Positions 3,001-64,000 of a stretch of 64,000 bases of DNA are shown piece after piece. A program made the position numbers and the translations under genes. Under the pieces are notes generated by a model. That model made no database searches. It was not told the DNA's origin and saw nothing but the letters and a program-made list of their open reading frames with translations. The first letter of the stretch is position 1, and every line of letters starts with the position of its first letter. This DNA is from Parapedobacter lycopersici (lineage in GTDB: Bacteria > Bacteroidota > Bacteroidia > Sphingobacteriales > Sphingobacteriaceae): contig NZ_JBEBRB010000001.1 in assembly GCF_040395035.1 (NCBI RefSeq), positions 81,579 through 145,578 on the forward strand, in the 5' to 3' direction.

Positions 3001-3898
3001 AGACCACGAACAGCTGTTCCGTACATTTGAACGAAACAGGCAGGCCGTTTCCCAGCGACTGGGACAACGTAACCCGAATTCAACCGGCTCGGAAGACGGG
3101 TTCGCAGATGGTTACGACCGCACCTCTCAAGATGTAGTCGTCAACGCTTTTTTGGCGGCTTATCGCGGCAAGGATGCGCGTCGGAGTAAATTAACCAGTT
3201 TTCCGAATATCCCGTTTCCGAATTGGAATGTTACTTATAATGGCCTGAGTAAAATACCCCTGCTTAGCGAATTTGTTACCTCACTGACCCTGCGTCACGG
3301 TTACAATAGCCGGTATTCCATTAATGGATACAATTCGGTGATCCGCTATTCGGAGGTAAATGGATTTCCGTTTGAGCGGGATATCAATGGCAATTTCCTG
3401 CCGGAATATCAGTTTCAGCAAATCTCGATCTTTGAGCAGTTTACACCGCTATTGGGCATGGACGCACGTTTTAAGAACGATCTGACTGCCAATGTGGAAT
3501 ATCGGAGAGGCCGTACGTTGAATCTCAGTCTGCAAAATAGCCAGCTGGCGCTGCTCAACGACGAATCCTTTGTGCTGGGTATGGGTTATCGCGCGACCGG
3601 CTTCCGGATGCCGTTTGGATGGTTCAGCAATTTCAAGATGAGCAACGACCTTAACTTTCGGCTGGATGTGTCTATCAACGATCTGAAAACACTGGTATAT
3701 CGCTCGGATATTAACGAATCGGAAGTGTCCGCAGGGAATAAAAGCATTTCCTACCGCCCGTCCATTGACTATGTCATAAACCAGCGGTTTAATATCCGAT
3801 TGTTTTTTGACAGCAATTCCGTACGACCATATACCTCACAGACTTTTGCCACTTCCTATGCGAATTTCGGCTTTAATCTGCGCGTGATGTTCCAGTAA
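2..3898 (+). CDS. sprA: Cell surface protein SprA / T9SS outer-membrane translocon, C-terminal part (5' truncated by window edge)
   Basis: Frame is open from base 2 (AFDNDPAARARQDIGLDGL...) into the 143..3898 ORF; SprA-like motifs WYQFRIP, DFKSIRFIRMF, WFNELRL, GFGSIDQ; ends in a beta-strand-rich barrel with FGFNLRVMFQ. Confidence 0.92.
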   Translation, partial: AFDNDPAARARQDIGLDGLNDSDERDFHASFLTQTQALLNSSAAQELMDDPSGDNFRYFRGPDLDNQNAGILKRYERFNGPEGNARTPEQSQNEFGVETSASTLLPDGEDINRDNNMNEAEEYYQYKVSLRPQDMVVGENYISDMHVAEVSLPNGTKEQVKWYQFRIPLAQYKERIGDIRDFKSIRFIRMFMTDFADTAVVRLAQVQLARGEWRRYNAENNTAKVIVDPSMGNVSLDQSTIEVAAVNIEQNGNRQPIPYVVPPGIERQMDWGNLNTNVRLNEQSLSLDVKNLRDGYGRAAYRTATNDFRAYGRLEMFIHAEGMYLKDGDFRAFIRVGTDDQYNYYQYDMPLKVTQPGTADPETIWPQENRMNIRIQIFQEAKEARNKATLNGQPWPIDEPFTYFDGQNRVIVMGQPDISKVRFYMLGVMNPLRGSEVSIPGDDGLDKSGLFWFNELRLSDFDDKGGWAVTARMNAKLADFANITVSGSKSTIGFGSIDQRIGERSRSEDRYFDIVTNAELGKFFPTDYGLRIPLFFSYTNQVSTPEYNPLMPDIEMNSALANLSRNSRDSLLRVTQDYTTRKSFNLTNVRKIRTDIEKPVRPWDIENFSATYAYSQYYHRDYLTEIALQKNYRAALDYTFSASGEHFIEPLKNSFKKNYLSLLRDFNFNLMPSLLNFRIDVNRIYNENTLRDNSPDNFLPSMGTLYNKNFTMNRIYGISWNLTKSLRLDFNATNYAIVDEPDGRLYGLKRDTLWENFWRLGRTTDYNHMLNITYSLPISKIPGLDWINVDARYGAQFAWQTEPLLSINSAEINMGNSIQNSRTIQVNPTLNMAGLYNKFGFIRNNTGLDASGTAAFFTGLLTSIKNINAAYTRVQNTFLPGYLPKTNMLGYDFDRNAPGWGFLFGSQRDIRMRAAANGWITTDTLQTQLYMNSLTEDFSLRALMEPFRDLNIELTAVKLNNRNYTSSFQYTGETDNYRNLTPVTTGNYSISYLSIGTAFKDHEQLFRTFERNRQAVSQRLGQRNPNSTGSEDGFADGYDRTSQDVVVNAFLAAYRGKDARRSKLTSFPNIPFPNWNVTYNGLSKIPLLSEFVTSLTLRHGYNSRYSINGYNSVIRYSEVNGFPFERDINGNFLPEYQFQQISIFEQFTPLLGMDARFKNDLTANVEYRRGRTLNLSLQNSQLALLNDESFVLGMGYRATGFRMPFGWFSNFKMSNDLNFRLDVSINDLKTLVYRSDINESEVSAGNKSISYRPSIDYVINQRFNIRLFFDSNSVRPYTSQTFATSYANFGFNLRVMFQ

Positions 3899-4434: not shown

Positions 4435-6834
4435 ATGAATCGATTCTTTCTCCTCCACATCAAGCCTATCCCCTTTTTTCGGGCGTTATTAAAACATCTT
4501 TTTTTAGTTGGCTTATTCAGTACCCTTTGGGGTCATCTTCATGCACAGGATACCGGCACATTGACCGGAAAGGTTACCGCCATAGATTCCCTTCCCCTTG
4601 ACAAGGCATCCGTTACCATTGAACGCACCGATTTAGGCACCACAACCGGCACAGACGGGAGATTTGAGTTCCATCTTCCTCCCGGTAAATACGATGTATG
4701 GATACGCACAGTCGGTTATCAGCCCTACCGGAAAACCGTTATTGTTGCACCGGGCAATGTCACTGTTATGGATGCGACATTACAGGAAGACCACCTCAAC
4801 TTAAATGAAGTTGTCGTCAGTGCCACCCGGTACGGCGTAGACCGTCGGGAGGCCCCGGTCATTGTAAATGTGATCAGCCCGAAAATATTCAATGCAACAC
4901 AGTCTGTCGCCATGTCTGAAACACTGAATTACCAACCGGGTGTACGCGTGGAGACCAACTGTCAGAATTGTGGATTTACGCAGGTAAGGCTCAATGGACT
5001 GGGGGGTGCATATTCGCAGATCCTGATCAATAGCCGGCCCGTGTTCAGCGCCCTTAGCAGTGTATACGGCCTTGATCAGATCCCTACCAGCATGGTCGAC
5101 CGCATTGAGGTGGTACGGAGTGGTGGATCAGCGCTATTCGGATCGAATGCCATTGCCGGAACCATCAATGTAATTACCAAGGACCCGGTGGAAAACACCT
5201 GGCAAATCGGTTCCACCAACGCACTGGTCGACGGCTCCAAATGGGACAACACCGTCGATTTCAATGCCTCGATCATCTCGGAGGATCTAGCCACGGGCGT
5301 AACTTTTTACGGCATGAACCGGAATCGGCAGGCATTTGATGCCAATGGCGACGGATTTACGGAAATGACGAAGCTGAAAAACACGACTTTTGGTGGAAAG
5401 GCATTTTATATGCCCTCCGATGTTAACCGAATAACGCTGGATTTCAGTGTGATAAACGAATTCCGCCGCGGGGGAGATCGCCTTGACCTAGCTCCGCATT
5501 TTACCGACATCACGGAACAACTGGATTATAGTACATTTTTGGGTGGATTTACATTCGACCATTACAGTACGGACTATAAAAGCAAGTTTTCAGCTTATAC
5601 TTCTGCTCAGAAAGGAAAACGGAATAGTTTCTATGGCGGCATGGGAGGAAACAGGACACCTGCGGACAGTTTACTGGCGAACAACGCCTACGGCCATACC
5701 GACGACCTGGCATGGGTAGGCGGATTGCAGTTCACACACACCTTTGCGAATGACGTGCTGACCGCGGGAGCCGAACATCAGCTCAACGACACCCAGGATG
5801 AAATCGCCGGATATGCCCGTTTAGTCGACCAGACCGCCAACAGTACCGGGCTTTATGCACAATACGAATGGAAACCAGTGCGTGCATTTACGGCGCTCGT
5901 GGGTGCACGCTATGATTATGTGACCATTAACGGCCGTTACACGCTCCATAACATCAACCGGACTGGCGACATCCGTACCGGTGTGCTCAGTCCACGGCTT
6001 ACGTTGCTGTACAACATGACCGACTACCTCCAGTTCCGGGGTGGTTACGCCCGGGGATTCCGGGCACCACAGGCGTTCAATGAAGACATGCACGTATCCT
6101 CAGTTGGAGGCCAGCAGGTGTTTGTCCTGATTTCCAACAACCTGAAAACAGAATATTCCAACGCATACACGGCGTCGTTAAATTTAATGAAAAATATTGG
6201 AGACATACAGTTCAGCGCATTGGTCGAAGGCTTTTACACCGATCTGCGCAACCCGTTTACAAATGTGTTATCAACGGAGCTGGCAGGTGTGCTGTTTGAG
6301 GAAATGCGGAATGGCGAGGGGGCCTATGTGACCGGCACTAACATCGAACTGAGTATGGCCCCGTCCGCCCGCTATAGCCTGCAGGCCGGAGGCACCGTGC
6401 AACGCTCGCATTATCGCGATGCCCAGGTACTGTTTGACGGCGCCGCGGGGCTCCCGCCAGTAACCACGGATGAATTTGTAAAATCGCCCGATGTATACGG
6501 CTATGTCAGCAGTAACTGGAAAGCAACCGACCAACTCAGCGTCGACGTAACCGGCACATACACAGGATCAATGATCGTTCCGCACGTGGTAAATGACAAC
6601 GCCTTCGTCCTATTGAAAAATACTCCGGAGTTTGTTGAGCTTAACATGCGCCTGGGTTATGTATTTAACGTCAGAAAAGACTTTAGCATAGAATTGAGCG
6701 GAGGGGTGCAAAACGTATTGAATAGCTATCAAAAAGATTTTGATACAGGTCCGGCGAGGGACGCTGACTATATTTACGGCCCGGCAAGGCCACGCACCTA
6801 TTTCCTGGGGTTAAAAATCGGACACTTCCATTAA
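4435..6834 (+). CDS. TonB-dependent outer-membrane receptor with N-terminal carboxypeptidase-regulatory-like domain and CQNC motif in the plug
   Basis: Signal peptide ending LHAQD, LNEVVVSATR TonB box, plug VETNCQNCGFTQVRLNGL...DRIEVVRSGGSALFGSNAIAGTINVITK, C-terminal PRTYFLGLKIGHF. ATG at 4435 preferred over TTG at 4429. Confidence 0.92.
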   Translation: MNRFFLLHIKPIPFFRALLKHLFLVGLFSTLWGHLHAQDTGTLTGKVTAIDSLPLDKASVTIERTDLGTTTGTDGRFEFHLPPGKYDVWIRTVGYQPYRKTVIVAPGNVTVMDATLQEDHLNLNEVVVSATRYGVDRREAPVIVNVISPKIFNATQSVAMSETLNYQPGVRVETNCQNCGFTQVRLNGLGGAYSQILINSRPVFSALSSVYGLDQIPTSMVDRIEVVRSGGSALFGSNAIAGTINVITKDPVENTWQIGSTNALVDGSKWDNTVDFNASIISEDLATGVTFYGMNRNRQAFDANGDGFTEMTKLKNTTFGGKAFYMPSDVNRITLDFSVINEFRRGGDRLDLAPHFTDITEQLDYSTFLGGFTFDHYSTDYKSKFSAYTSAQKGKRNSFYGGMGGNRTPADSLLANNAYGHTDDLAWVGGLQFTHTFANDVLTAGAEHQLNDTQDEIAGYARLVDQTANSTGLYAQYEWKPVRAFTALVGARYDYVTINGRYTLHNINRTGDIRTGVLSPRLTLLYNMTDYLQFRGGYARGFRAPQAFNEDMHVSSVGGQQVFVLISNNLKTEYSNAYTASLNLMKNIGDIQFSALVEGFYTDLRNPFTNVLSTELAGVLFEEMRNGEGAYVTGTNIELSMAPSARYSLQAGGTVQRSHYRDAQVLFDGAAGLPPVTTDEFVKSPDVYGYVSSNWKATDQLSVDVTGTYTGSMIVPHVVNDNAFVLLKNTPEFVELNMRLGYVFNVRKDFSIELSGGVQNVLNSYQKDFDTGPARDADYIYGPARPRTYFLGLKIGHFH

Positions 6835-29218: not shown

Positions 29219-29422
29219 ATGATGGAATTAAGAAGAGATGTATTTCAGGCGATAGCTGACCCTATCCGAAGGGCAATAATTACTTTGATAGCACTTCAGG
29301 CCATGACACCCAGTGCTATAGCTGAAAATTTTGGATCATCGCGGCAAACAATAATACACCGTTTGCCGCTCAGCTTGAATTCCTGGATTCTGAAAACTCA
29401 CGGACGACGCCAACTGAACTAA
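29219..29422 (+). pseudogene. Truncated ArsR/SmtB regulator fused by deletion to an out-of-frame SRPBCC remnant
   Basis: [20 protein letters not shown]...SSRQT then homology stops; 29353-29409 reads [12 protein letters not shown] then, after a frameshift, (K)LTDD, matching AQLEFLEFEKLTDD in the intact SRPBCC at 61969-62433. Confidence 0.8.
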
Positions 29423-29449: not shown

Positions 29450-29827
29450 ATGACAAAGCGAAACAAAATCATCTACTGGATCGCCACTTGCTGGTTGGCC
29501 CTGGGAATGCTTTCAACCGGAGTCGTGCAATTGATCAAAATGAAAGAGGAGATGGATGCAATGACTCTTCTGGGTTATCCGGCTTACTTACTTAGCATAT
29601 TGGGTACATGGAAGCTACTTGGTGTTATTGCCATACTTATCCCTAAATTTGCTTTACTTAAAGAATGGGCTTATGCCGGTTTCTTTTTTGCAATGACCGG
29701 AGCAATCGTCTCACACTTGATTATTGGAAATGGCGCAAAAGAACTTTTCGGACCTACGTTGTTACTTGTTCTCACCGTCGTTTCCTGGCTTTTTAGACCC
29801 GAAGGCAGAAAATTGCAGTTTAATTAA
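29450..29827 (+). CDS. DoxX-like family membrane protein (paralog of 61561-61962)
   Basis: KIIYWIAT, LGYPAY, LKEWAYAGFFF shared with the 61.5-kb copy. Confidence 0.88.
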   Translation: MTKRNKIIYWIATCWLALGMLSTGVVQLIKMKEEMDAMTLLGYPAYLLSILGTWKLLGVIAILIPKFALLKEWAYAGFFFAMTGAIVSHLIIGNGAKELFGPTLLLVLTVVSWLFRPEGRKLQFN

Positions 29828-53963: not shown

Positions 53964-54019
53964 TAAAAAATCGGCACAGATATACCTGAGGTTCCGTCGC
54001 CAAAAATTCACCACGGACC

Positions 54020-54592
54020 TTACGTGTGCTCCTCCCGGATATGGCGTTCCAGAAACTTAACCCGCTCCACAACAGGTACCAGGGGTACGTCAATCAATTG
54101 ATAGCCGTATTTGCTGTAGGTCTTTTTCATCATTTCATAGGTAAACACCGCCTCTTCCCACGTTTGCTTTCGTTCGGCGTCGGTATGATAGATTTCTGGC
54201 CAGGGAGGCAAAATAAACACACGGCGATGATAACGGTACCGGCTGGCCAGCTCCGGCTCGTCGGGAATTTCCAGACCGATCATGGCCGCATAACATAATG
54301 TATCCGGTATTCCCCGGTCAAAAAACACCACGCTGCCCGGTGTGTATTCATCCATCGTTTGCAGGTAGCTCTCCACGGACGTCTTTAGCATCAGCTGGGT
54401 ATAAGCGGCTTTATTTTGCCACGGCAGTGCATCACCGCCACAGGCAACCTGTTCCCGGATAATTTCACGGGCAACCTCTGGAATGCAGGGAAATTGTTTC
54501 GCCCGCAGGGCATCCAGCAGGGTTGTTTTGCCCGTTCCCGGTCCACCCGTGATCACGAAAAACCGGTTTGGAGGAAAACGCTGTTCACCCAT
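54020..54592 (-). CDS. P-loop ATPase (AAA_28 type)
   Basis: VITGGPGTGKTTLL, FFDRGIPD, ERKQT. Confidence 0.85.
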   Translation of the reverse strand: MGEQRFPPNRFFVITGGPGTGKTTLLDALRAKQFPCIPEVAREIIREQVACGGDALPWQNKAAYTQLMLKTSVESYLQTMDEYTPGSVVFFDRGIPDTLCYAAMIGLEIPDEPELASRYRYHRRVFILPPWPEIYHTDAERKQTWEEAVFTYEMMKKTYSKYGYQLIDVPLVPVVERVKFLERHIREEHT

Positions 54593-54636
54593 ACTGCAAA
54601 AAATCCGCCTTTCGGCCACTAACTAATAAAAGGGGG

Positions 54637-54909
54637 TTAGTCAAAGTCAAAAAAGTCGCCTAAAAAGGACTTTTTCTTACGGGGATGACTCTGGTGGTAC
54701 CGGTCGTCGTACTTCGGACGGTCGCGGTCGCGATCCCAATCTCCCGACGGGTTGCGGGAGGCATTTGTTTCTTCCCTTTCAGCGTAGCTGATAATTTTGT
54801 CGAGCTCACCCCGGTCCAGCCATATTCCCCTGCACGACGGACAATAATCGATCTCTACCTGATTCCTTACGGACATCAATAACGTTTCATTGCAATTCGG
54901 ACATTTCAT
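54637..54909 (-). CDS. zf-TFIIB-domain protein
   Basis: MKCPNC...EIDYCPSCRGIWLDRGELDKI, C-terminal KKSFLGDFFDFD. Confidence 0.88.
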   Translation of the reverse strand: MKCPNCNETLLMSVRNQVEIDYCPSCRGIWLDRGELDKIISYAEREETNASRNPSGDWDRDRDRPKYDDRYHQSHPRKKKSFLGDFFDFD

Positions 54910-55034
54910 CGTTACGTTAGTTATGTTTACAAACAAACATACCATTTTATCCGGGTCGTACCCCGGGATCATGGTAATAATATGGATACCTTGGTGCCTG
55001 TACTAAAAGATGCCGAAGTTCGGATAGCCGGGCG

Positions 55035-56084
55035 CTAACCGCCGTACTGTTCCGCGTAATATTGCTGATAATGGCCGGACGTTACATCCTGCAGCCATTC
55101 TTCATTTGCGAGGTACCAGTCCACCGTTTTTTCCAGCCCTTCCTCAAACTGCAGGCTGGGCTCCCAATCCAGGTCCTGTTTCAGCCTGGTGGCATCAATG
55201 GCATACCGCAAATCGTGCCCTGCGCGGTCTTTTACAAACGTGATGAGCTTGGCGGATTCCCCTGCTGCCCGCCCCAGTTTTTTATCCATAATCCGGCAGA
55301 GCAGCTGGATCAGGTCAATATTCTTCCATTCATTATGCCCGCCGATATTGTAGGTCTGGCCCGGGGCTGCCCCATGGAAGATCACATCAATAGCACGTGC
55401 ATGGTCCTCCACCCAAAGCCAATCGCGCACGTTCTCGCCTTTGCCATACACCGGCACCGGCCGGTTATTTTTAATATTATTAATGGCCAACGGGATCAGT
55501 TTCTCCGGAAAGTGGAAGGATCCGTAATTATTGGAACAGTTGGAAATCACCGTATCCAGCCCGTACGTATCATGGTACGCCCTTACAAAATGGTCAGAAG
55601 AAGCTTTGGATGCCGAATAAGGTGAATGGGGATCATACTTTGTCTCTTCGGTAAACATACCCGTATCGCCCAGTGCCCCGTAGACCTCGTCCGTAGACAC
55701 ATGATAAAACCGGTGTTCCGCATATTCGCCTTCCCAATACTTTTTCGCCGCGTTCAGCAGGTTTACGGTACCTACCACATTGGTCAGTACAAACTCCAGC
55801 GGACTGCTGATGGAGCGGTCGACATGCGACTCTGCCGCCAGGTGAATCACGGCCGCAGGCCGCTCAGCCGCAAACAGTTCATCCAGAAAAGCCGTGTCTG
55901 TGATATCGCCCTTCACAAACCGGTAGTTGGGCCGGTCTTCGATATCGCGAAGATTCGCCAAGTTACCGGCATAAGTCAACTTATCCAGGTTAATCACTTC
56001 GTAATCGGAATAACGGGTCACAAACCGCCGGACTACATGCGATCCGATAAACCCGGCTCCGCCGGTAATGATAATTTTTTTCAT
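55035..56084 (-). CDS. rfbB: dTDP-glucose 4,6-dehydratase
   Basis: TGGAGFIGSH, HLAAESHVDRSI, STDEVYG, YSASK, DRAGHDLRY. Confidence 0.96.
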   Translation of the reverse strand: MKKIIITGGAGFIGSHVVRRFVTRYSDYEVINLDKLTYAGNLANLRDIEDRPNYRFVKGDITDTAFLDELFAAERPAAVIHLAAESHVDRSISSPLEFVLTNVVGTVNLLNAAKKYWEGEYAEHRFYHVSTDEVYGALGDTGMFTEETKYDPHSPYSASKASSDHFVRAYHDTYGLDTVISNCSNNYGSFHFPEKLIPLAINNIKNNRPVPVYGKGENVRDWLWVEDHARAIDVIFHGAAPGQTYNIGGHNEWKNIDLIQLLCRIMDKKLGRAAGESAKLITFVKDRAGHDLRYAIDATRLKQDLDWEPSLQFEEGLEKTVDWYLANEEWLQDVTSGHYQQYYAEQYGG

Positions 56085-56102
56085 AATACAACTACTCAAT
56101 AA

Positions 56103-57131
56103 CTAACTCAGCGGATTCGTCTTCAAATACTGTTCCCATTTCCATGCCGACTGCATCATCTCTTCAATTCCCAATGCAGCCTTCCAGCCCAGCTTCTCGG
56201 TGGATTTCGTTACATCCCCCCACACCTGTTCCACATCTCCGGCACGGCGGGGTCCGATCTGATAATCAAGCTTCACACCCGTGGATTCCTCGAATGCCCG
56301 GATAACTTCCAGCACCGAATTGCCGGTGCCCGTCCCTACATTGAATACGTCGTAGTTTCCATCCGGGTTTCCTTGTTCCAGCAGGTCAATAGCTGCCACG
56401 TGTGCTCTGGCCAGATCCACCACATGGATATAATCGCGTATTGCCGAGCCGTCGGGCGTACTGTAGTCGTCGCCGAAAACCGTAATCGGGCCGCGCTTGC
56501 CAATTGCGCTTTGGGTAATAAACGGAATGAGATTCTGCGGCACACCAAGGGGCAGTTCGCCAATGAGCGCGCTTTCATGGGCACCCACCGGATTAAAGTA
56601 CCGAAGCGATATGATCCGGTAATTATCAGATGCCGCCGCTGTTTCAGACAGGATTTCCTCAGCAATCTGTTTCGTATTGCCATAGGGTGATTCGGCCTGC
56701 TTTACGGGTGCCGTTTCGGTTACCGGTAATTGATCGGGCTGGCCATATACGGTGCAGCTGGATGAAAACACAAAATTTACCGGCTTACCTGCATAGGCAT
56801 TAAGCAAGTTAATCAACGAAAATAAATTGTTGTGATAATATTTAAGCGGCTGTTGAACAGATTCACCCACGGCCTTATAAGCCGCAAAGTGAATGATCCC
56901 GCTGACATCCGGATTAGCCGCTACGAATGCCCGGACCCGCTGTTCGTCGCAAAGATCAAACTCGTGGAATTCCGGCTTTTCACCGGTAATTTTTTCAATC
57001 TGGTCAAGTACCCGCACATTGGAATTGGAAAGGTTATCCACAATTACCGGCGTATATCCGGCCTGCTGCAACGCAACCACCGTGTGCGAACCGATGTAGC
57101 CGGTACCGCCAGTTACTAAGATTTTGCTCAT
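56103..57131 (-). CDS. galE: UDP-glucose 4-epimerase
   Basis: TGGTGYIGSHT, HFAAYKAVGES, YGNTK, LRYFNPVGAH, RDYIHVVDLA. Confidence 0.96.
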   Translation of the reverse strand: MSKILVTGGTGYIGSHTVVALQQAGYTPVIVDNLSNSNVRVLDQIEKITGEKPEFHEFDLCDEQRVRAFVAANPDVSGIIHFAAYKAVGESVQQPLKYYHNNLFSLINLLNAYAGKPVNFVFSSSCTVYGQPDQLPVTETAPVKQAESPYGNTKQIAEEILSETAAASDNYRIISLRYFNPVGAHESALIGELPLGVPQNLIPFITQSAIGKRGPITVFGDDYSTPDGSAIRDYIHVVDLARAHVAAIDLLEQGNPDGNYDVFNVGTGTGNSVLEVIRAFEESTGVKLDYQIGPRRAGDVEQVWGDVTKSTEKLGWKAALGIEEMMQSAWKWEQYLKTNPLS

Positions 57132-58115
57132 TTATCGTTTATTATAATACGTAAAATCCTTATGTGCTATTTCCTGGTCGGGCAACGATTTAAAATAATC
57201 ATACGTAATCCGGAGCCCTTCTTCCCGCCCTACTTTGGGTTCCCATCCCAGGATTTCCCGCGCTTTGGTAATATCAGGCCGCCGCTGCTTGGGATCGTCC
57301 ACCGGCAGATCCCGGTAAACCAGCTGCCTGTCCGTACCGGTGAGTTTAATAATCTCCTCGCCAAACTGCCGGATGGTAATCTCATCGGGGTTACCGATGT
57401 TTACGGGATGCGGGTAGTCGCTCAGGAGCAGCCGATAAATACCCTCCACTTGATCGTCTACATAGCAGAAAGACCGTGTCTGGGAGCCGTCGCCGAAAAC
57501 CGTCAGGTCTTCGTCGCGCAATGCCTGCCCGATAAATGCCGGCAATACCCGGCCGTCATTGAGCCGCATCCGGGGACCATAAGTATTAAAAATGCGCACA
57601 ATACGTGTTTCCAGTCCATGGAAGGTGTGGTACGCCATGGTAATGGCCTCCTGAAAGCGCTTCGCCTCATCGTAAACACCCCGTGGTCCCACCGGGTTCA
57701 CATTTCCCCAGTACGTTTCCGGCTGGGGGCTTAGCGTAGGATCACCATACACTTCCGATGTAGAGGCTACCAGAATCCGGGCACCTTTCGCCCGGGCCAG
57801 GCCCAGCAGGTGGTGGGTACCCAGCGAGCCCACTTTCAGGGTCTGGATGGGGATCTTCAGGTAATCGATCGGGCTTGCTGGCGACGCAAAGTGAAGAATA
57901 TAGTCCAATTTGCCCGGCACATGCACAAAGGTAGATACATCATGCCGGTAAAATTCGAAATTAGGCAGCTTGAACAGGTGTTCAATATTACGGAGATCAC
58001 CCGTAATCAGGTTGTCCATCCCGATGACATGGTAATCTTCATGGATAAAACGATCGCAGAGGTGGGACCCCAAAAAACCCGCTGCACCAGTGATAAGTAT
58101 CCGCGCTTTTGACAT
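57132..58115 (-). CDS. UDP-glucuronic acid decarboxylase
   Basis: [44 protein letters not shown]. Confidence 0.93.
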
Positions 58116-58199
58116 AAGCTAATTTGCATATCATTTACCCCCTGAGCCCAATTGCTTAAGTAGGTAACTTTAGTTAAGTTTGAGGCGAATATAAGGATT

Positions 58200-59501
58200 A
58201 TGCAGGCAATTTACCTGGTCAGTATCAAAATTTACGGTTTATTTTTATGGCTGTTATCGCCCTTTCACGCCAAGGCCCGAAAGTGGGTCGGCGGTCGCCG
58301 GAATCTCCTGCACCGCATCGCACGGGAGGTTGATCCGGACCGCGGATGCATCTGGTTTCACTTTGCCTCACTGGGCGAGTTCGAGCAAGGACGCCCGGTA
58401 TTGGAGGCGTTGCGCGCCCGACGGACCGATAAGCCTTTTCTGGTCACTTTTTACTCGCCTTCGGGTTATGAAATCCGCAAAAACACCCCCTTGGCCGACC
58501 ACGTCTATTACCTGCCCGCCGACACCCCGCGCAATGCTCGCCGCTTTGTTGAACTGGTTAATCCCGAATTTGCGGTTTTCACCAAATACGAATACTGGCC
58601 GTATTATTTTCAGGCGCTGCACCGCAGGAACGTTCCCCTGTATCTGATTTCCGCTATTTTCCGGCCCGGACAGGTGTTCTTCCGCTGGTATGGGGGCCTG
58701 TTCCGCAAAGCACTCCGGTGCGTGACTTTCTTTTTCACCCAGAATGAAGAAAGCCTGCGGTTGCTGGCACCGCTGGGCCATACCAATGCCGTGCTTGCCG
58801 GGGATACCCGGTTCGACCGCGTGGTTACGCTGCCCCGGATGCGCAAAGAACTCCCCGGGATTGCAGACTTCGTAGCCGGTCATCCGGTGCTGGTCGCCGG
58901 CAGCACCTGGCCTGCAGACGAAGTCCTGCTCGCTGGTCTGCGCGGGCGGTATCCCGACTGGAAACTCATCCTTGCGCCGCATGAAATCCACGAAGAGCAC
59001 ATCCTTTCCATCGAAAAGCTATTTCCGGACAGCCAGCGGTATTCTCATATGAACGGAGGCACCGATCGGCTTTCAGTTACCGGAAATCAGGTCACCGGCC
59101 GCGCAACACCGGCCGTGGACCGTCGGCTATCAACCACCCTCATCATCGATAACATTGGTATGCTTTCCACGCTGTATGGTTACGGTCACGTAGCCTATAT
59201 CGGCGGCGGCTTTGGCAAGGGCATTCACAATACGCTGGAGGCGGCCACTTACGGCATTCCCGTTGTATTCGGCCCCAATTACCGGAAATTCCAGGAGGCA
59301 AAGGACCTGATCGTCGAAGGTGGCGGTTTCACGGTCGCGGACGCCGACGGACTGGCTGCGGTTTTTAACGAGCTGCAAACGGAGGGACAACGTCTCGTGG
59401 CCGGACGGAAGAGCGGGGCTTATGTGGCCCGCAAGGCCGGGGCCACAGCCATCATCATGGCAAAAATAGCGCCCGTACGGGAAAAAGGTTCCGGGAATTA
59501 A
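58200..59501 (+). CDS. waaA: 3-deoxy-D-manno-octulosonic acid (Kdo) transferase
   Basis: WFHFASLGEFEQG, GDTRFD, AGSTW, GGGFGKGIHNTLEAA, FGP. Confidence 0.92.
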   Translation: MQAIYLVSIKIYGLFLWLLSPFHAKARKWVGGRRNLLHRIAREVDPDRGCIWFHFASLGEFEQGRPVLEALRARRTDKPFLVTFYSPSGYEIRKNTPLADHVYYLPADTPRNARRFVELVNPEFAVFTKYEYWPYYFQALHRRNVPLYLISAIFRPGQVFFRWYGGLFRKALRCVTFFFTQNEESLRLLAPLGHTNAVLAGDTRFDRVVTLPRMRKELPGIADFVAGHPVLVAGSTWPADEVLLAGLRGRYPDWKLILAPHEIHEEHILSIEKLFPDSQRYSHMNGGTDRLSVTGNQVTGRATPAVDRRLSTTLIIDNIGMLSTLYGYGHVAYIGGGFGKGIHNTLEAATYGIPVVFGPNYRKFQEAKDLIVEGGGFTVADADGLAAVFNELQTEGQRLVAGRKSGAYVARKAGATAIIMAKIAPVREKGSGN

Positions 59502-60628
59502 TCGGTAAAAAACAGTTCCGAAGCGATGTGGTCGGCCAGCAGTTTTCCACTCCTGGTCAGTGTAGCCACCTCCTCCCTTACCAGGATATCCCCAGACTGC
59601 AGGAATGCCTGTAATGCTGCCGCGAGGACGAGCCGGCGCTCCCGGCCGAATTCAGTTTCAACAATCCGCAGATCAAGTCCCCAGACCGTCCGCAATGATG
59701 TCATAATGTACTCGTTCAATCGATCCCGGCTCGTCAGGAATTCACGTTCCCCGGGCAGTTTATTGTCCTGCAACGCCCGGAGGTATTTCACATTATTGCT
59801 TACATTCCATTGCCGCGTACCGCCATCAAAGGAATGGGCGGAGGGACCGACACCGAGGTAGGAAACACCCCTCCAATAGTTGCTGTTGTGCCTTGCGTAG
59901 CGCCCTTCCCGGGCGAAATTCGATATTTCGTATTGGATATACCCGGCCTGGTCCAGCGCATCCATCAGGTATTCAAATTGCACCGCACTTTGCTGCTCGT
60001 CCATCGGCCGCTGCTTCCCTTTCCGGATCAGGGCCGCCAACGCGGTCTGCGGTTCCACAGTCATGCTGTATGCAGAAATGTGCGGCACATTAAATGCAAG
60101 CATTTTTGCCACGTTCCGCTGCCACTTCTCGTTGGTGAGCAATGGATAACCATAAATCAGGTCGGCCGTGATATTGTCAAAACCGGCATCCTGAAGCCGT
60201 TTTATCGCAGTTTCGGCGTCCGCAGCCCCGTGTGCGCGGTTCATCCAGCGCAGGTCCTCCTCAAAAAATGACTGAATGCCAACGCTCAGGCGATTCACCG
60301 GTGTATCGCGAAGCCCGGCAATGAAACCGGCATGCAAATCATCCGGATTGGCCTCCAGTGTGATTTCGGCGCCCGATGACACCGGAAATAGATCCGTCAC
60401 GGTTCCAAGCAGTCGCCGTATTTCATCCGGCGCGAGCAGTGAAGGGGTGCCCCCGCCGAAATAAATGGTTTCGACGGGCTCATTGCCCAGGTATGCCTTC
60501 CGCAGGTTCAATTCGCGCTGCATGGCGTCGATCATTTCATCGCGGTATTTCAGCGAAGTGCTGAAATGAAAATCGCAGTAATGACACGCCTGCTTACAAA
60601 AAGGAATATGAAAATAAATACCCGCCAT
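59498..60628 (-). CDS. hemW: Radical SAM heme chaperone HemW
   Basis: YFHIPFCKQACHYCDF (CX3CX2C), YFGGGTPS, YEISNF, HNSNYW. Confidence 0.93.
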   Translation of the reverse strand: MAGIYFHIPFCKQACHYCDFHFSTSLKYRDEMIDAMQRELNLRKAYLGNEPVETIYFGGGTPSLLAPDEIRRLLGTVTDLFPVSSGAEITLEANPDDLHAGFIAGLRDTPVNRLSVGIQSFFEEDLRWMNRAHGAADAETAIKRLQDAGFDNITADLIYGYPLLTNEKWQRNVAKMLAFNVPHISAYSMTVEPQTALAALIRKGKQRPMDEQQSAVQFEYLMDALDQAGYIQYEISNFAREGRYARHNSNYWRGVSYLGVGPSAHSFDGGTRQWNVSNNVKYLRALQDNKLPGEREFLTSRDRLNEYIMTSLRTVWGLDLRIVETEFGRERRLVLAAALQAFLQSGDILVREEVATLTRSGKLLADHIASELFFTD

Positions 60629-60884
60629 TTTTGATCCAACGATAAATGATATAAATAACGGAAGACAATTACATCATCTTCGTTAATAATCTTATTGAAG
60701 TGATTTAAACTTTTTTGATGCAAGACAAGCGGTCCAAAAGCTATAATTTAAAATTATCACACTACAAAATTACGGTCAAATGAACTGCAAGTACGCGAAA
60801 CTACTGTAATCGTCAGCAAAAGTGGACATATTTATCGCTATCTAAGAGCAGATTTCGTTAATAAAGTTACTGATTCCTGCGTTG

Positions 60885-60991
60885 GATCGTTGGGTTTTCG
60901 TTGTTTGAATATTTGATACCTTCATTTATTTAAACGCTTAGGTTCTTGAATTTCCCCATTTCCAAACGACTAAATTTGCCTGCCGTTATGT
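60885..60991 (-). repeat. Truncated attC-like hairpin remnant downstream of the low-GC cassette
   Basis: Minus strand starts ACATAAC (60991-60985); inner arms 60962-60969 / 60887-60894 pair 7 of 8; distal GTTA end not found. Confidence 0.4.
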
Positions 60992-61095
60992 TCAAGTAAA
61001 ACAATGATGATCTAATTTTAGTAACAGTTGCCGTGCATCTTGCAGTTAATGTGTCGCTTGTGCTTTTTCAATCCGAGCTAACTAGATTGATTATT

Positions 61096-61557
61096 TTAAT
61101 ACGCTCCTTTTATGACAAAAAATGACCCTCTAATGGTTCCCGCCAACTTAGATTTTTGGCGAGCAAATTTGAATTTGCTCAATTCCTCCGGCACTTCCAT
61201 TCCTTCGGAAAGTTTAAATCCTACAGCCCTTTTTTTCGGATTGTCAAGTGGGTATAAAACATTAATTCCAAGGCCGCTTTCGTAAAAAACGAACACCCAT
61301 TTTATATTTTCAACCTGCAATGTTGCTGTTTCCAAGGGTTTCGATGCGATCACTATACCGCGCTCTTCCTTTAATATTTTATGAACCCACGCGATTGTTT
61401 CAATGCTTTCATCGGCTGGCGTAACACTAAATTCCGTGTTGTATTTATTCATAAAATATCGTGCTTCATTTGCACGTAAACCAGCAAGCGCTGCTGCAAC
61501 AGGAGATGACGCTAAGCCTGTTATGGACACATTTTTAAAATCTATCGTTGTTGTCAT
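61096..61557 (-). CDS. Conserved-looking hypothetical protein
   Basis: 153-aa ORF (ALAGLRANEARYFMNKY, KRAVGFKLSEGM, GTIRGSFF), 3 nt after the DoxX stop; no function recognised. Confidence 0.75.
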   Translation of the reverse strand: MTTTIDFKNVSITGLASSPVAAALAGLRANEARYFMNKYNTEFSVTPADESIETIAWVHKILKEERGIVIASKPLETATLQVENIKWVFVFYESGLGINVLYPLDNPKKRAVGFKLSEGMEVPEELSKFKFARQKSKLAGTIRGSFFVIKGAY

Positions 61558-61560
61558 ATT

Positions 61561-61962
61561 TTATAATTTATTTGTTATTAGGATGATTTTTCTGTCCGAA
61601 GGTCTGAAATACCAGGAAATTGCAATCAGCACAAGGTAAAGTAAAGAAGGCAATATCAAATTGAAAGTATCGCCCGATGCAATGTGTGAATATAAGGCCC
61701 CGGTTACGGTGAAGAAGATACCCGCATAAGCCCATTCTTTCAGCAATGGAAATTTTGGAATAAGAAATGCAATCACACCCAGTATTTTCCATATTCCGAG
61801 TAGTGTAAGAATGTAAGCGGGATAACCTAAATGTGTTAGGTTTTCTTCGGTACCCGGCCCGTCAGCCTGTATCCTAAATAGCTGAATAATGGCGGTAGAT
61901 ACCATACCCAGACATAACCACACGGTTGCTATCCAATAAATTATTTTATCTCTTTTTTTCAT
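61561..61962 (-). CDS. DoxX-like family membrane protein (paralog of 29450-29827)
   Basis: KIIYWIAT, LGYPAY, LKEWAYAG. Confidence 0.88.
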   Translation of the reverse strand: MKKRDKIIYWIATVWLCLGMVSTAIIQLFRIQADGPGTEENLTHLGYPAYILTLLGIWKILGVIAFLIPKFPLLKEWAYAGIFFTVTGALYSHIASGDTFNLILPSLLYLVLIAISWYFRPSDRKIILITNKL

Positions 61963-61968
61963 GCTTTG

Positions 61969-62433
61969 CTATTTTAATCTGTTTACTATTTCTTGTAGTT
62001 TATTGTGAGCCATATTAAGTCCATACGCAAATGGAAGTTTTAATTGTTCTGCTCTATGTTGCTCCGACCTGTAAATGATTTGTATTGTCAATTTGCTTGT
62101 ATCATCTGTCAGTTTTTCAAATTCCAAAAATTCAAGTTGAGCGCCTATAGACATATTTTCCATTTCAAATGTCCGTATGATCTTCTGGTTTGACACAAAT
62201 TCGTGTATTGTCCCGTTTGCACGGAAAACAACAGTTCCGTTGTGCGACGTTTCAAAAGCATAAGAACCGTGTTTTTTGTTGTCTAATTTCAACACTTTTG
62301 CTCCCATCCATTGTTCAACAAGTTCTGGTTCTTCATAAGCTTTAAAAAGCAATTCCAAGGGCAAATCAAATTCTCGTACAATCGTTAATTCCTGTTTGCC
62401 TTCTTCAGCTACAATTTTGGTTTTTTGCTCCAT
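61969..62433 (-). CDS. SRPBCC / AHSA1-like (CalC-type) protein
   Basis: ELTIVREFDLPLELLFKAY..PELVEQW, IIRTFEME; standard partner of ArsR. Confidence 0.88.
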   Translation of the reverse strand: MEQKTKIVAEEGKQELTIVREFDLPLELLFKAYEEPELVEQWMGAKVLKLDNKKHGSYAFETSHNGTVVFRANGTIHEFVSNQKIIRTFEMENMSIGAQLEFLEFEKLTDDTSKLTIQIIYRSEQHRAEQLKLPFAYGLNMAHNKLQEIVNRLK

Positions 62434-62434
62434 T

Positions 62435-62758
62435 TCATTTTTTGTTTTTATAATGCTTCATTAGGGATTCTAATTTATTGAACCTGTCGTCCCACATTTT
62501 GCGGAAAGGCGCTAAAAAATCGTCCACGGCTTTCATTTTTTCGGGATTAAGTTGATAATGAATTTCCCTCCCATTTTGTTCTTGTTTGAGCAAATCACAT
62601 TCAGTTAATATTTTAATGTGGTTAGAAATCGTGGGTCGCGAATAATCAAAATTAGCAGCGATAGCGCCTGCCGGCATTGCCTGAGTAGCAAGCAACAATA
62701 AAATTGCCCGCCTTGTGGGGTCGGAAATTGCTTGAAATACGTCTCTTCTTGTTTTCAT
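62435..62758 (-). CDS. ArsR/SmtB-family transcriptional regulator
   Basis: [35 protein letters not shown]. Confidence 0.93.
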
Positions 62759-62761
62759 ATT

Positions 62762-62803
62762 GAAGTCATTTGGCTACAAATGTAAGCGTAGTCATTTAAC
62801 TAC
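62762..62803. promoter_or_regulatory. ArsR-type operator (two 16-bp boxes, 26-bp period) overlapping -7 element
   Basis: Minus strand GTAGTTAAATGACTAC (62803-62788) and GTAGCCAAATGACTTC (62777-62762), with TAcaTTTG between them. Confidence 0.65.
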
Positions 62804-62889
62804 ACAAGTTTTTGTTCATTTTTTTCAGTTAGCATTTTGTAGAAATGGTTTTGATGGGGCTTTGTCGTGGTTTAATGTCTATTAGCCCT

Positions 62890-63021
62890 GCCTATAACGG
62901 CTCAAGTCTTTGCGTTCCGACGGGTTGGAGTACAAAGTTTCAATGTATTGCTAAAGTTTAATAGAAGCACGAAGTCAAGTTTGCATGTCAGTCCGTCTGA
63001 CTCAAAACCCGTGTCAGTGGC
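62890..63021 (-). repeat. 132-bp attC-like imperfect hairpin upstream of the low-GC cassette
   Basis: Minus strand GCCACTGAC...GTTATAGGC ends; inner arms tttgagtcagacgg / ccgtcggaacgcaaa pair 12 of 14 with one extrahelical A. Confidence 0.6.
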
Positions 63022-63179
63022 CCTGGTTATCAGTATCGTTTTAAATGTCGGCCATTATTCAGTGCCAAAGCTAACCTGGAGATCAGAATTAACTTGTTCC
63101 GCAGGAAGCTTTCATTTTTTTATGTTTCTTTGCGCAAGAAACATAGCCGGATGATCGCTCCTGCTAAACTGATTCCAAT

Positions 63180-64000
63180 ATGGCACACAGCAACAAGTCC
63201 TCCGTTTTTCTTTACCTGGGTTTATTATTTAGCGCCTGTCAATTGACAGAAAATGCAAAACAGGAGGGCACCGGGGGATCAATTCCACCTACCGCCGAAG
63301 CAACGGAACAGCCGGCAATGCCGGCAGCGGAACCTTCTTCCGACGGCAGGGTTGATTCCGCCGTCTACTGGGCGGGGTTGCATGCACTGGCTCATGGCGA
63401 TACCACCGGAAGGTGGCCCGTAGCGGACCAGCCGATTCCGCTTAAAGGGGCTGTATTGCCCGGCAAACGGATCATCGCCTATTATGGAAACCTATATTCC
63501 CGTCAGATGGGTATTCTTGGTGAACTGCCCCCTGTGCAAATGCTGGATAAACTGGATGCCGAAGTGGCTGCCTGGAATGCAGCGGATACGGGTATTCCGG
63601 CAGTTCCCGCACTCCATTACATTGCCGTCACCGCACAGGGCAGTCCCGGACGGGACGGCAAACACCGGCTGCGCATGCCATTCAGCCAGATCGATTCCGT
63701 GCTTCGCATTGCCAAAAAAAGAGATGCGCTGGTCTTTCTGGACATCCAGGTCGGCTTCAGCACGCTGGAAGACGAGATCCCGCGCCTCGACACCTTTCTG
63801 CGTATGCCGCACGTGCACCTGGGTATTGACCCTGAATTTTCCATGAAAGAAGACCTACCCCCGGGCAAACGGATTGGCTCATTTACCGCTAAGGACATCA
63901 ATTTTGCCGCCGCGCATCTTGCCAAACTGGTCCGCAACAATAACCTCCCTCCCAAGGTCCTTGTGGTGCATCGCTTTACCCAGGGTATGATTAAGGATTA
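63180..64000 (+). CDS. Lipoprotein of unknown function, 3' truncated by window edge (not in ORF track)
   Basis: Manual translation MAHSNKSSVFLYLGLLFSAC...IIAYYGN...HLGIDPEFSMK...VLVVHRFT, open to the end of the window. Confidence 0.8.
   Translation, partial: MAHSNKSSVFLYLGLLFSACQLTENAKQEGTGGSIPPTAEATEQPAMPAAEPSSDGRVDSAVYWAGLHALAHGDTTGRWPVADQPIPLKGAVLPGKRIIAYYGNLYSRQMGILGELPPVQMLDKLDAEVAAWNAADTGIPAVPALHYIAVTAQGSPGRDGKHRLRMPFSQIDSVLRIAKKRDALVFLDIQVGFSTLEDEIPRLDTFLRMPHVHLGIDPEFSMKEDLPPGKRIGSFTAKDINFAAAHLAKLVRNNNLPPKVLVVHRFTQGMIKD

Follow-up and report, generated by a model that had tools for sequence, protein, structure and literature searches.

The locus

We analyzed a stretch of 64,000 nt from Parapedobacter lycopersici (assembly GCF_040395035.1, designated G000; contig NZ_JBEBRB010000001.1, positions 81,579 to 145,578 of the forward strand), hereafter the window, and all coordinates below are positions in it (window position 1 being contig position 81,579). 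Close to its right end, hemW and a lipoprotein-like gene are separated by a low-GC segment which, read on the minus strand, opens with a short tail and a decayed attC-like site. It continues with four co-oriented genes arranged head to tail (61096–62758), coding for an ArsR-type repressor, an SRPBCC-domain protein, a DoxX-family membrane protein and a conserved protein, p153, and closes with 463 nt of non-coding DNA (61095–60633) that include the stump of an IS5-family insertion sequence (IS) (Table 1). We consider it likely that this segment is a horizontally acquired fragment of a Bacteroidota integron-like gene-cassette array with a captured stress operon.

Table 1. Features of the hemW–lipoprotein gene locus in window coordinates (ORF, open reading frame; G001, the sister genome).
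Feature	Position	Strand	Evidence or remark
hemW (radical SAM / HemN_C), left flank	59498..60628	-	PF04055 + PF06969; 96% amino acid identity to G001
Left copy of direct repeat	60624..60632	.	GCCATT exact, GCCATTtTT extended
Inserted low-GC segment	60633..63050	-	2,418 bp; 2,427 bp with one repeat copy; missing from G001
IS5-family remnant	60693..60809	+	left end and first 8 codons (MNCKYAKLL*) of a DUF4096 transposase ORF; rest deleted
Non-coding debris after last gene	60810..61095	-	holds ACATAAC (60991-60985); no attC
p153, 153-aa conserved protein, fourth gene	61096..61557	-	no family match
DoxX-family membrane protein	61561..61962	-	PF13564 DoxX_2, E 2.5e-21
SRPBCC / AHSA1-domain protein	61969..62433	-	PF08327, E 3.4e-11
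ArsR/SmtB-family (SdpR-like) repressor, first gene	62435..62758	-	PF12840 + PF01022; NF033788 78.5 bits, above cut-off
Putative promoter/operator region	62759..62835	-	two GTAGnnAAATGACTnC palindrome-like repeats (62764-62783, 62790-62809)
Decayed attC-like site, 130 nt	62890..63019	-	covariance model 109.6 bits, E 2.5e-30; aligned with 12 copies of other genomes
31-nt tail preceding attC in donor	63020..63050	-	within insert, outside attC model
Right copy of direct repeat	63051..63059	.	GCCATTATT; GCCATTaTT
Lipoprotein-like gene, right flank	63180..64000, continues past window	+	ORF; 95% amino acid identity to G001

A low-GC insertion and its empty site

The limits of the segment are set by G001, a sister genome within Parapedobacter with ~93% DNA identity to G000. 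Its contig C12 matches window positions 54002–60632 and 63051–64000 without interruption and with a 9-nt overlap (blastn); there, hemW directly adjoins the lipoprotein gene, which starts at a distance of 124 nt. The sequence of the empty site, ...ATACCC-GCCATT-ATTCAG..., is split in the window, and both copies of the flanking direct repeat align to its single GCCATTATT, exactly over 6 bp and at 8 of 9 positions in the extended form. Since the left copy includes the hemW start codon (ATG, 60628–60626), the insert sits 1–4 nt upstream of hemW. The former upstream region of hemW now lies 2.4 kb off, past the insert and in unchanged orientation, and behind it the right repeat, read on the minus strand, gives the relic ATG-GCC-GAC-ATT-TAA.

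An earlier note on this DNA, made from the letters alone, had described a low-GC block of four genes at 60985–62898, stranded between hemW and the lipoprotein gene, and had suggested a search for an empty junction in relatives. The junction in G001 bears out both the block and its stranding, and the low-GC zone proves to be wider than proposed, its comparative limits being 60633–63050. The insert has a G+C content of 37.2% against 49.2% for the remaining window and is the lowest in G+C among all 2.4-kb stretches of the whole window, the minimum starting near 60600; the four genes range from 35 to 40%, as against 53.8% in hemW and 55.2% in the lipoprotein gene.

Such a filled/empty pair might also have arisen if the segment were ancestral to both genomes and lost from G001 by slippage or recombination between the GCCATTnTT repeats. 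Consistent with this, an 8/9 direct repeat flanks the segment, G001 retains exactly one copy, and no outgroup has the locus, the two genes being adjacent only in G000 and G001 and unlinked in the other 17 Parapedobacter genomes; an exact-pattern scan of metagenome contigs yielded no further filled or empty sites. However, the ends of such a deletion would have to match the foreign low-GC limits exactly and re-form a compact divergent promoter region of 124 nt. Further, G001 has no attC-type site anywhere, and a second orphan cassette of G000 (on contig C82, see below) is likewise missing from it. Given the foreign composition, the coincidence of the breakpoints with the compositional limits and the array-type content of the segment, a horizontally acquired insertion is the more likely history, and we hold an ancestral presence followed by loss from G001 to be unlikely.

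A decayed attC-like site upstream of the genes

The attC-like site retains both of its ends in recognizable form: R'' is CACTGAC (63019–63013), in which the AAC has mutated to GAC, and R' is GTTATAG (62898–62892). It has suffered two small deletions, keeps 21 of 29 base pairs as against 25–29 in other copies, and folds like its shuffles (z ~0); an intact copy of the same family forms a long, imperfectly paired hairpin (bottom strand folded as DNA, z -3.2). The covariance model used below detected no second attC elsewhere in the 64-kb window, and neither Rfam families nor tRNA/tmRNA genes were found as an integration target or as the identity of the attC-like repeat. As the site lies upstream of arsR with both its ends present, it belongs to a preceding cassette, of which positions 63020–63050 are probably the end. 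Being both decayed and alone, in a genome that has no array recombinase (see below), it leaves the block immobile: the latter is an inert relic with no second site to recombine with.

The earlier note had read the four genes as one discrete, integron-like cassette, running from a GTTATAG at 62898 to an ACATAAC at 60985, with a hairpin at each end, and moved by single-strand hairpin recombination. One half of this stands, in that GTTATAG does form the R' end of an attC-type site extending from 63019 to 62890, and a homologous cassette placed between two attC sites does exist in another genome (G017:C12); the custom covariance model that the note had called for recovers this site. At the other end the proposal fails, with no hairpin or model match at or after ACATAAC: the 476 nt after the last gene fold no better than shuffles (z +0.47), the region after p153 gives only E>1 with the model's filters off, and GTTAT and ATAAC occur four times each per strand in the insert, where chance predicts 5.2 and 3.5. 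Moreover, the comparative limits are 60633/63050 and not 60985/62898, and a cassette recombined at attC would have that site after its genes, cut at G|TT, whereas here it is complete and upstream of them. A single discrete cassette with two hairpin cores is thus highly improbable. The position of attC upstream, its absence after the genes and the IS5 remnant beyond them point to an array fragment rather than a cleanly excised cassette; what remains of the cassette proposal is the genuine upstream attC and the cassette-borne homologs of the operon in two relatives (G017 and G028).

A family of attC-like sites in Bacteroidota

The stretch 62882–63021 recurs at 71–85% identity in many genomes of several families among the 40 relatives searched, often near contig ends. 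Aligned in the orientation of the window minus strand, 15 copies (12 genomes) resemble one another over the stretch bounded by (Y)TAAC and CGTT, with the similarity ending exactly at these bounds. Each copy for which an upstream flank is available is preceded by a different same-strand ORF of 124–298 aa that ends just before the element, from an overlap of a few nucleotides to ~40 nt upstream of it (13 other copies with flank: L014–L022 and L024–L027). Hence, the family presents the organization of attC sites: an R'' ending in AAC, an R' beginning with GTT and a conserved structure in between, of which the window copy is a decayed representative.

A covariance model built from this alignment recovers same-strand arrays of the 134-nt sites in 28 of 41 relatives, with sites spaced 0.7–2 kb apart; for instance, five sites in G027:C45 (0.8–1.0 kb apart), four in G030:C27, six in G017:C12 and at least seven in G015:C28. 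In the main stem, 18 of 18 pairs show compensatory changes and 90–97% of cells are paired (72 matches), with a covariation score of 0.50 against 0.05–0.07 in controls with slid partners. The core AACACGGGTTTTGYRTCAG is spread over all major Bacteroidota orders, with occurrences in Sphingobacteriales, Chitinophagales, Cytophagales, Flavobacteriales, Bacteroidales as well as Ignavibacteria-type genomes, where it also forms arrays.

One copy (L025, G030:C71, 4001–4313) has CACAC instead of TAAC as R'' and is directly followed by a group II intron D1-D4 motif (RF02001, 33.9 bits); in integrons, attC sites are known targets of group II introns.

The array recombinase

In six relatives a tyrosine recombinase is encoded ~0.5–3.5 kb from an array end (G017, G015, G027, G032, G014, where it is a pseudogene, and G036), which is the co-occurrence that the earlier note had proposed looking for; elsewhere in the phylum, 10 of 80 8-kb loci around the motif also encode a tyrosine recombinase. 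The array recombinases are 352–437 aa long and combine PF13495 with PF00589. Their top NCBIfam match is TIGR02249, the integron integrase model, at 202–224 bits against a cut-off of 265, and it falls into two stretches that skip model positions 180–237, the region of the IntI-specific insert; NF040815 is matched at about 197–221 bits. Archaeal XerA and XerC-like proteins are their nearest PDB relatives, ahead of IntI4. At NCBI the family goes by the name 'site-specific tyrosine recombinase/integron integrase', and a family search returned relatives from Flavobacteriales, Ignavibacteria and metagenomes. Recombinase and array are divergent in G017 and G015 and co-oriented in G027, G032 and G014. 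In the cultured Parapedobacter soli KCTC 12984 (G016; L240 / L285), an intact array recombinase, 92% identical to that of G015, is encoded divergently ~870 nt from the first attC of a genome with at least 15 such sites.

A canonical integron integrase scoring above the TIGR02249 cut-off is found neither in G000 nor in ~40 relatives, and nothing in G000 matches that model at more than 76 bits, in line with the statement of the earlier note that the block lacks an integrase. An Xer-like recombinase together with a co-directional array of repeated intergenic elements occurs in relatives and in loci of the phylum, and the window, with one repeat and no recombinase, is a derivative rather than a member array.

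The four-gene operon and its relatives

Between attC and arsR (62889–62759), the duplicated palindrome (repeat family D6) is accompanied by a TAcaTTTG box from 62784 to 62777, which we read against the -7 consensus of Bacteroidota promoters, and by a hairpin from 62805 to 62786. The encoding of the repressor as the first gene, with palindromic repeats upstream as a putative operator, is the arrangement of ArsR/SmtB-regulated operons. The palindrome and the box may well serve as operator and promoter, respectively, and the operon probably answers to its own ArsR repressor. Of the promoter and repressor claimed in the earlier note, the ArsR gene is present, preceded by the duplicated operator-like palindrome, and the promoter is predicted from its motif. 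The combination of ArsR, SRPBCC and DoxX suggests a response to thiol-reactive/electrophile or oxidative stress. As the genes of the insert and hemW lie on one strand and the stretch between p153 and hemW showed no terminator-like hairpin, hemW is probably transcribed by read-through, from the operon promoter or from its displaced native promoter.

The fourth protein, p153, has more than 8000 homologs, with 73–85% identity across named genomes of Bacteroidota, Bacillota, Chloroflexota and archaeal metagenome-assembled genomes, and up to 92% in other assemblies. It has no match in Pfam, NCBIfam, PHROG or PDB, and its confident AlphaFold2 (AF2) model (predicted local distance difference test, pLDDT, 92.3) has no fold neighbor in PDB or among viral models. 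Neither a fold neighbor nor a PHROG match thus supports its database name, 'phage tail protein'.

The operon of the insert is 80–84% identical at the nucleotide level, over ~1.75 kb, to operons of low-GC Bacteroidota: L220 matches at 84% over 1.8 kb, Niabella hirudinis DSM 25812 and L217–L219 at 80% (L217–L220 being metagenome contigs). These have the same four genes in the same order, and the identity extends over the operator region, whose conservation alongside the operon reaches ~62835 in L220, L137 and L217; the similarity to them ends at ~61046 and ~62835, inside the insert. They differ in that they are chromosomal operons not flanked by attC, some of which run on into hydrolase and major facilitator superfamily genes. 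Within Parapedobacter, the best operon match is at most 76%: an arsR–SRPBCC–doxX module of 66–76% identity is present without attC in most genomes of the genus. In G017:C12, however, arsR–SRPBCC–doxX together with a gene for a 212-aa protein lies between attC sites at 3781–3878 and 5868–6001 of a six-site array, and in G028:C96 a homolog of the module adjoins an attC. Thus, the operon is a widespread self-regulated unit that is sometimes captured as a cassette, and, as its closest counterparts are not flanked by attC, it is mostly an ordinary chromosomal operon; yet the copy in the window came with the attC of a preceding cassette, which points to an array as its immediate donor.

The window holds a second doxX-like stretch at ~29570–29690 (G000:C1:111151-111266), 78% identical to that of the insert, which is part of a damaged arsR–SRPBCC–doxX copy at 29219–29422.

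Junctions and the mode of entry

An excised cassette that recombines through attC with attI or a genomic site should start with TTRRRY, end in an attC severed behind its last G, and adjoin a GWT target (Loot et al., 10.1101/2022.09.11.507474). None of these is present at 60633 or 63050; instead, both junctions carry the GCCATT repeat, with no G|TT / GWT signature, and the right one lies 31 nt outside attC, the left one beyond the IS remnant. By eye, the target site in the window has no GWT or dif-like features either, and, at variance with a canonical cassette, no attC follows the four genes. The cassette movement envisaged in the earlier note is contradicted by the comparison with the empty site.

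The direct repeat could alternatively be a target-site duplication left by a transposable element, composite or carrying passengers and related to the IS5 remnant, that brought the segment in. The length of the repeat is typical of target duplications, and 64 nt separate the IS5-family stump from the left junction. This stump is 79–84% identical to full copies elsewhere (G009:C42 and G016:C112), whose ORFs match PF13340 (DUF4096) and PF13586 (DDE_Tnp_1_2); with only the left end and eight codons left, it is a remnant rather than an element. Against transposition stand the internal position of this IS end, away from the junction, and the lack of a transposase gene in the segment. In addition, the repeat is 6 bp long, whereas the usual duplication of IS5-family elements with DUF4096 ORFs is 2–4 bp. 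The insert ends, TTTGATCC... and ...AAATGTCG, were also compared as candidate terminal inverted repeats (AACGATAnATGATA); these were rejected, as their best score, 9, was attained in 445 of 5000 shuffles and in 294 of 2855 random segment pairs, i.e., in 9–10% of the controls. We regard delivery by such an element as quite unlikely.

Our best guess is that the incoming DNA was joined by microhomology-assisted illegitimate recombination; a target duplication by transposition, or the overlap of a classical tyrosine-recombinase exchange, would also fit the GCCATT repeat and is less favored. The right junction, AATGGC-CGACA (63045–63056), resembles AATGGCACGACA in L014 (G027:C44), ~45 nt upstream of the attC there. 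If the donor already had AATGGC, the flanking repeat would be microhomology and not a target duplication.

Briefly, we advance the following likely course of events for the array-derived fragment. The donor array would have consisted of 134-nt attC-like sites served by an Xer/IntI-related tyrosine recombinase that has no insert of the IntI type. In minus-strand order, the fragment would comprise: (i) the final 31 nt of a cassette together with its attC; (ii) the complete next cassette, namely the self-regulated operon of arsR, SRPBCC, doxX and p153; (iii) debris that replaced the next attC, including the IS5-family stump. It would have landed just ahead of the hemW start codon in the G000 lineage, after the split from G001, leaving the GCCATT direct repeat and cutting hemW off from its native promoter. 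It is now inert: the AAC core of its attC is gone, as are roughly one in four base pairs.

Several observations weigh against this reading. The closest operons (L137 and L217–L219) have no attC in the 8–12 kb that were fetched around them, and L220 has a single weak one (23.5 bits), ~4 kb from the operon. The covariation supporting the attC family was counted on an alignment fitted to the model, which biases it towards the structure. The junctions of the insert lack the hallmarks of attC recombination; accordingly, the link to an array rests on the single decayed attC and the homologous cassettes elsewhere, and the array as donor context is to be taken as probable. Lastly, because only G000 and G001 have the two flanking genes side by side, gain in the one and loss in the other cannot be rooted, leaving a precise deletion between the two GCCATT copies as a candidate origin of the empty site in G001.

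A second orphan cassette

The only other match of the covariance model in G000, at 27.5 bits, is on contig C82 (L133), where a cassette at 5691–6445 has a low-GC ORF of 199 aa followed after 36 nt by an attC (6320–6453). In G001:C1 (615643–615671), this 754-nt unit is missing and 29 other nucleotides stand in its place. At its 3' end, the junction coincides exactly with the G of the attC GTT (...CCCGAACC-G|ATCACGG in G000 and ...GCCGT-G|ATCGCGG in G001), i.e., an integron-type crossover joined to a GAT (GWT) target, as in attC × attG; the 5' junction is imprecise. From this junction, attC-type recombination into ordinary chromosomal sites has probably occurred in this lineage.

Both orphan cassettes of G000 might then be products of off-array spread, with an array recombinase transiently acting in trans, by a G|TT × GAT exchange at C82 and through a 6-bp GCCATT overlap at the window insert. 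We consider this a long shot; if true, the junction in the window would be the natural product of a second, double-strand mode, as expected of an Xer-type enzyme rather than of IntI.

Relationship to known systems and implications

The statement of the earlier note that such cassettes are poorly described in Bacteroidota holds only in part, for rAID-1 arrays were published in 2019. In these, found in gut Bacteroidales, a XerD-like recombinase heads a co-directional low-GC array with intergenic repeats 'reminiscent of integrons' (Ross et al. 2019, 10.1101/471110); membership is defined by more than 44% identity of the recombinase to that of B. fragilis (Ross et al., 10.1101/471110). The arrays of the relatives share this layout, as compared by description, and by this analogy rAID-1 arrays appear to be the closest published kind. 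The window fragment differs from them in lacking a recombinase and in its cargo, a regulated stress operon rather than orphan immunity genes. There is also a likeness to Vibrio superintegrons, with their long, covarying attC sites with AAC...GTT ends after each cassette, on one strand, and a recombinase at one end; the Vibrio cholerae repeat (VCR)-type attC sites measure 120–130 nt. Unlike in sedentary chromosomal integrons, the Bacteroidota recombinase is without the additional domain of IntI and its orientation to the array varies.

Surveys with IntegronFinder report almost no integrons in Bacteroidetes, the exceptions being In0 elements and a single complete integron, from Salinibacter (PMC9024848), and the taxon-specific attC models leave out Bacteroidota (PMC8352920). 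The insert resembles single attC sites lacking integron-integrases (SALIN) and attC clusters without an integron-integrase (CALIN) (PMC4889954; PMC9024848; 10.1101/2022.09.11.507474) in combining an attC with foreign cargo at an ordinary chromosomal locus in the absence of an integrase. It departs from them in that its attC is of the Bacteroidota family, whose recombinase is without the IntI-specific domain, and lies upstream of the cargo, and in that its junctions are not G|TT / GWT; the C82 cassette does fit the attC × GWT pattern at its 3' junction.

The filled/empty pair provides base-exact junctions for DNA from an integron-like array that settled in a genome without the recombinase. Taken together with C82, the insert indicates that Bacteroidota cassettes reach ordinary chromosomal loci, apparently by more than one way, and that they persist there as regulated and probably expressed genes, with recombination sites in decay. 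It is further a case of a housekeeping gene, hemW, separated from its promoter by an array-derived insertion. On the array system itself it adds little beyond the rAID-1 literature, being a decayed, off-array case.

Additional observations

Within the debris of the insert, positions 60806–60864 resemble an intergenic stretch of G014:C27 that lies outside any ORF of at least 50 aa, a resemblance that explained nothing further. In L014 (G027:C44), a DUF805b RNA motif (1623–1658; RF02914, 44.8 bits) lies a few kilobases from the array and is unrelated to the insert.

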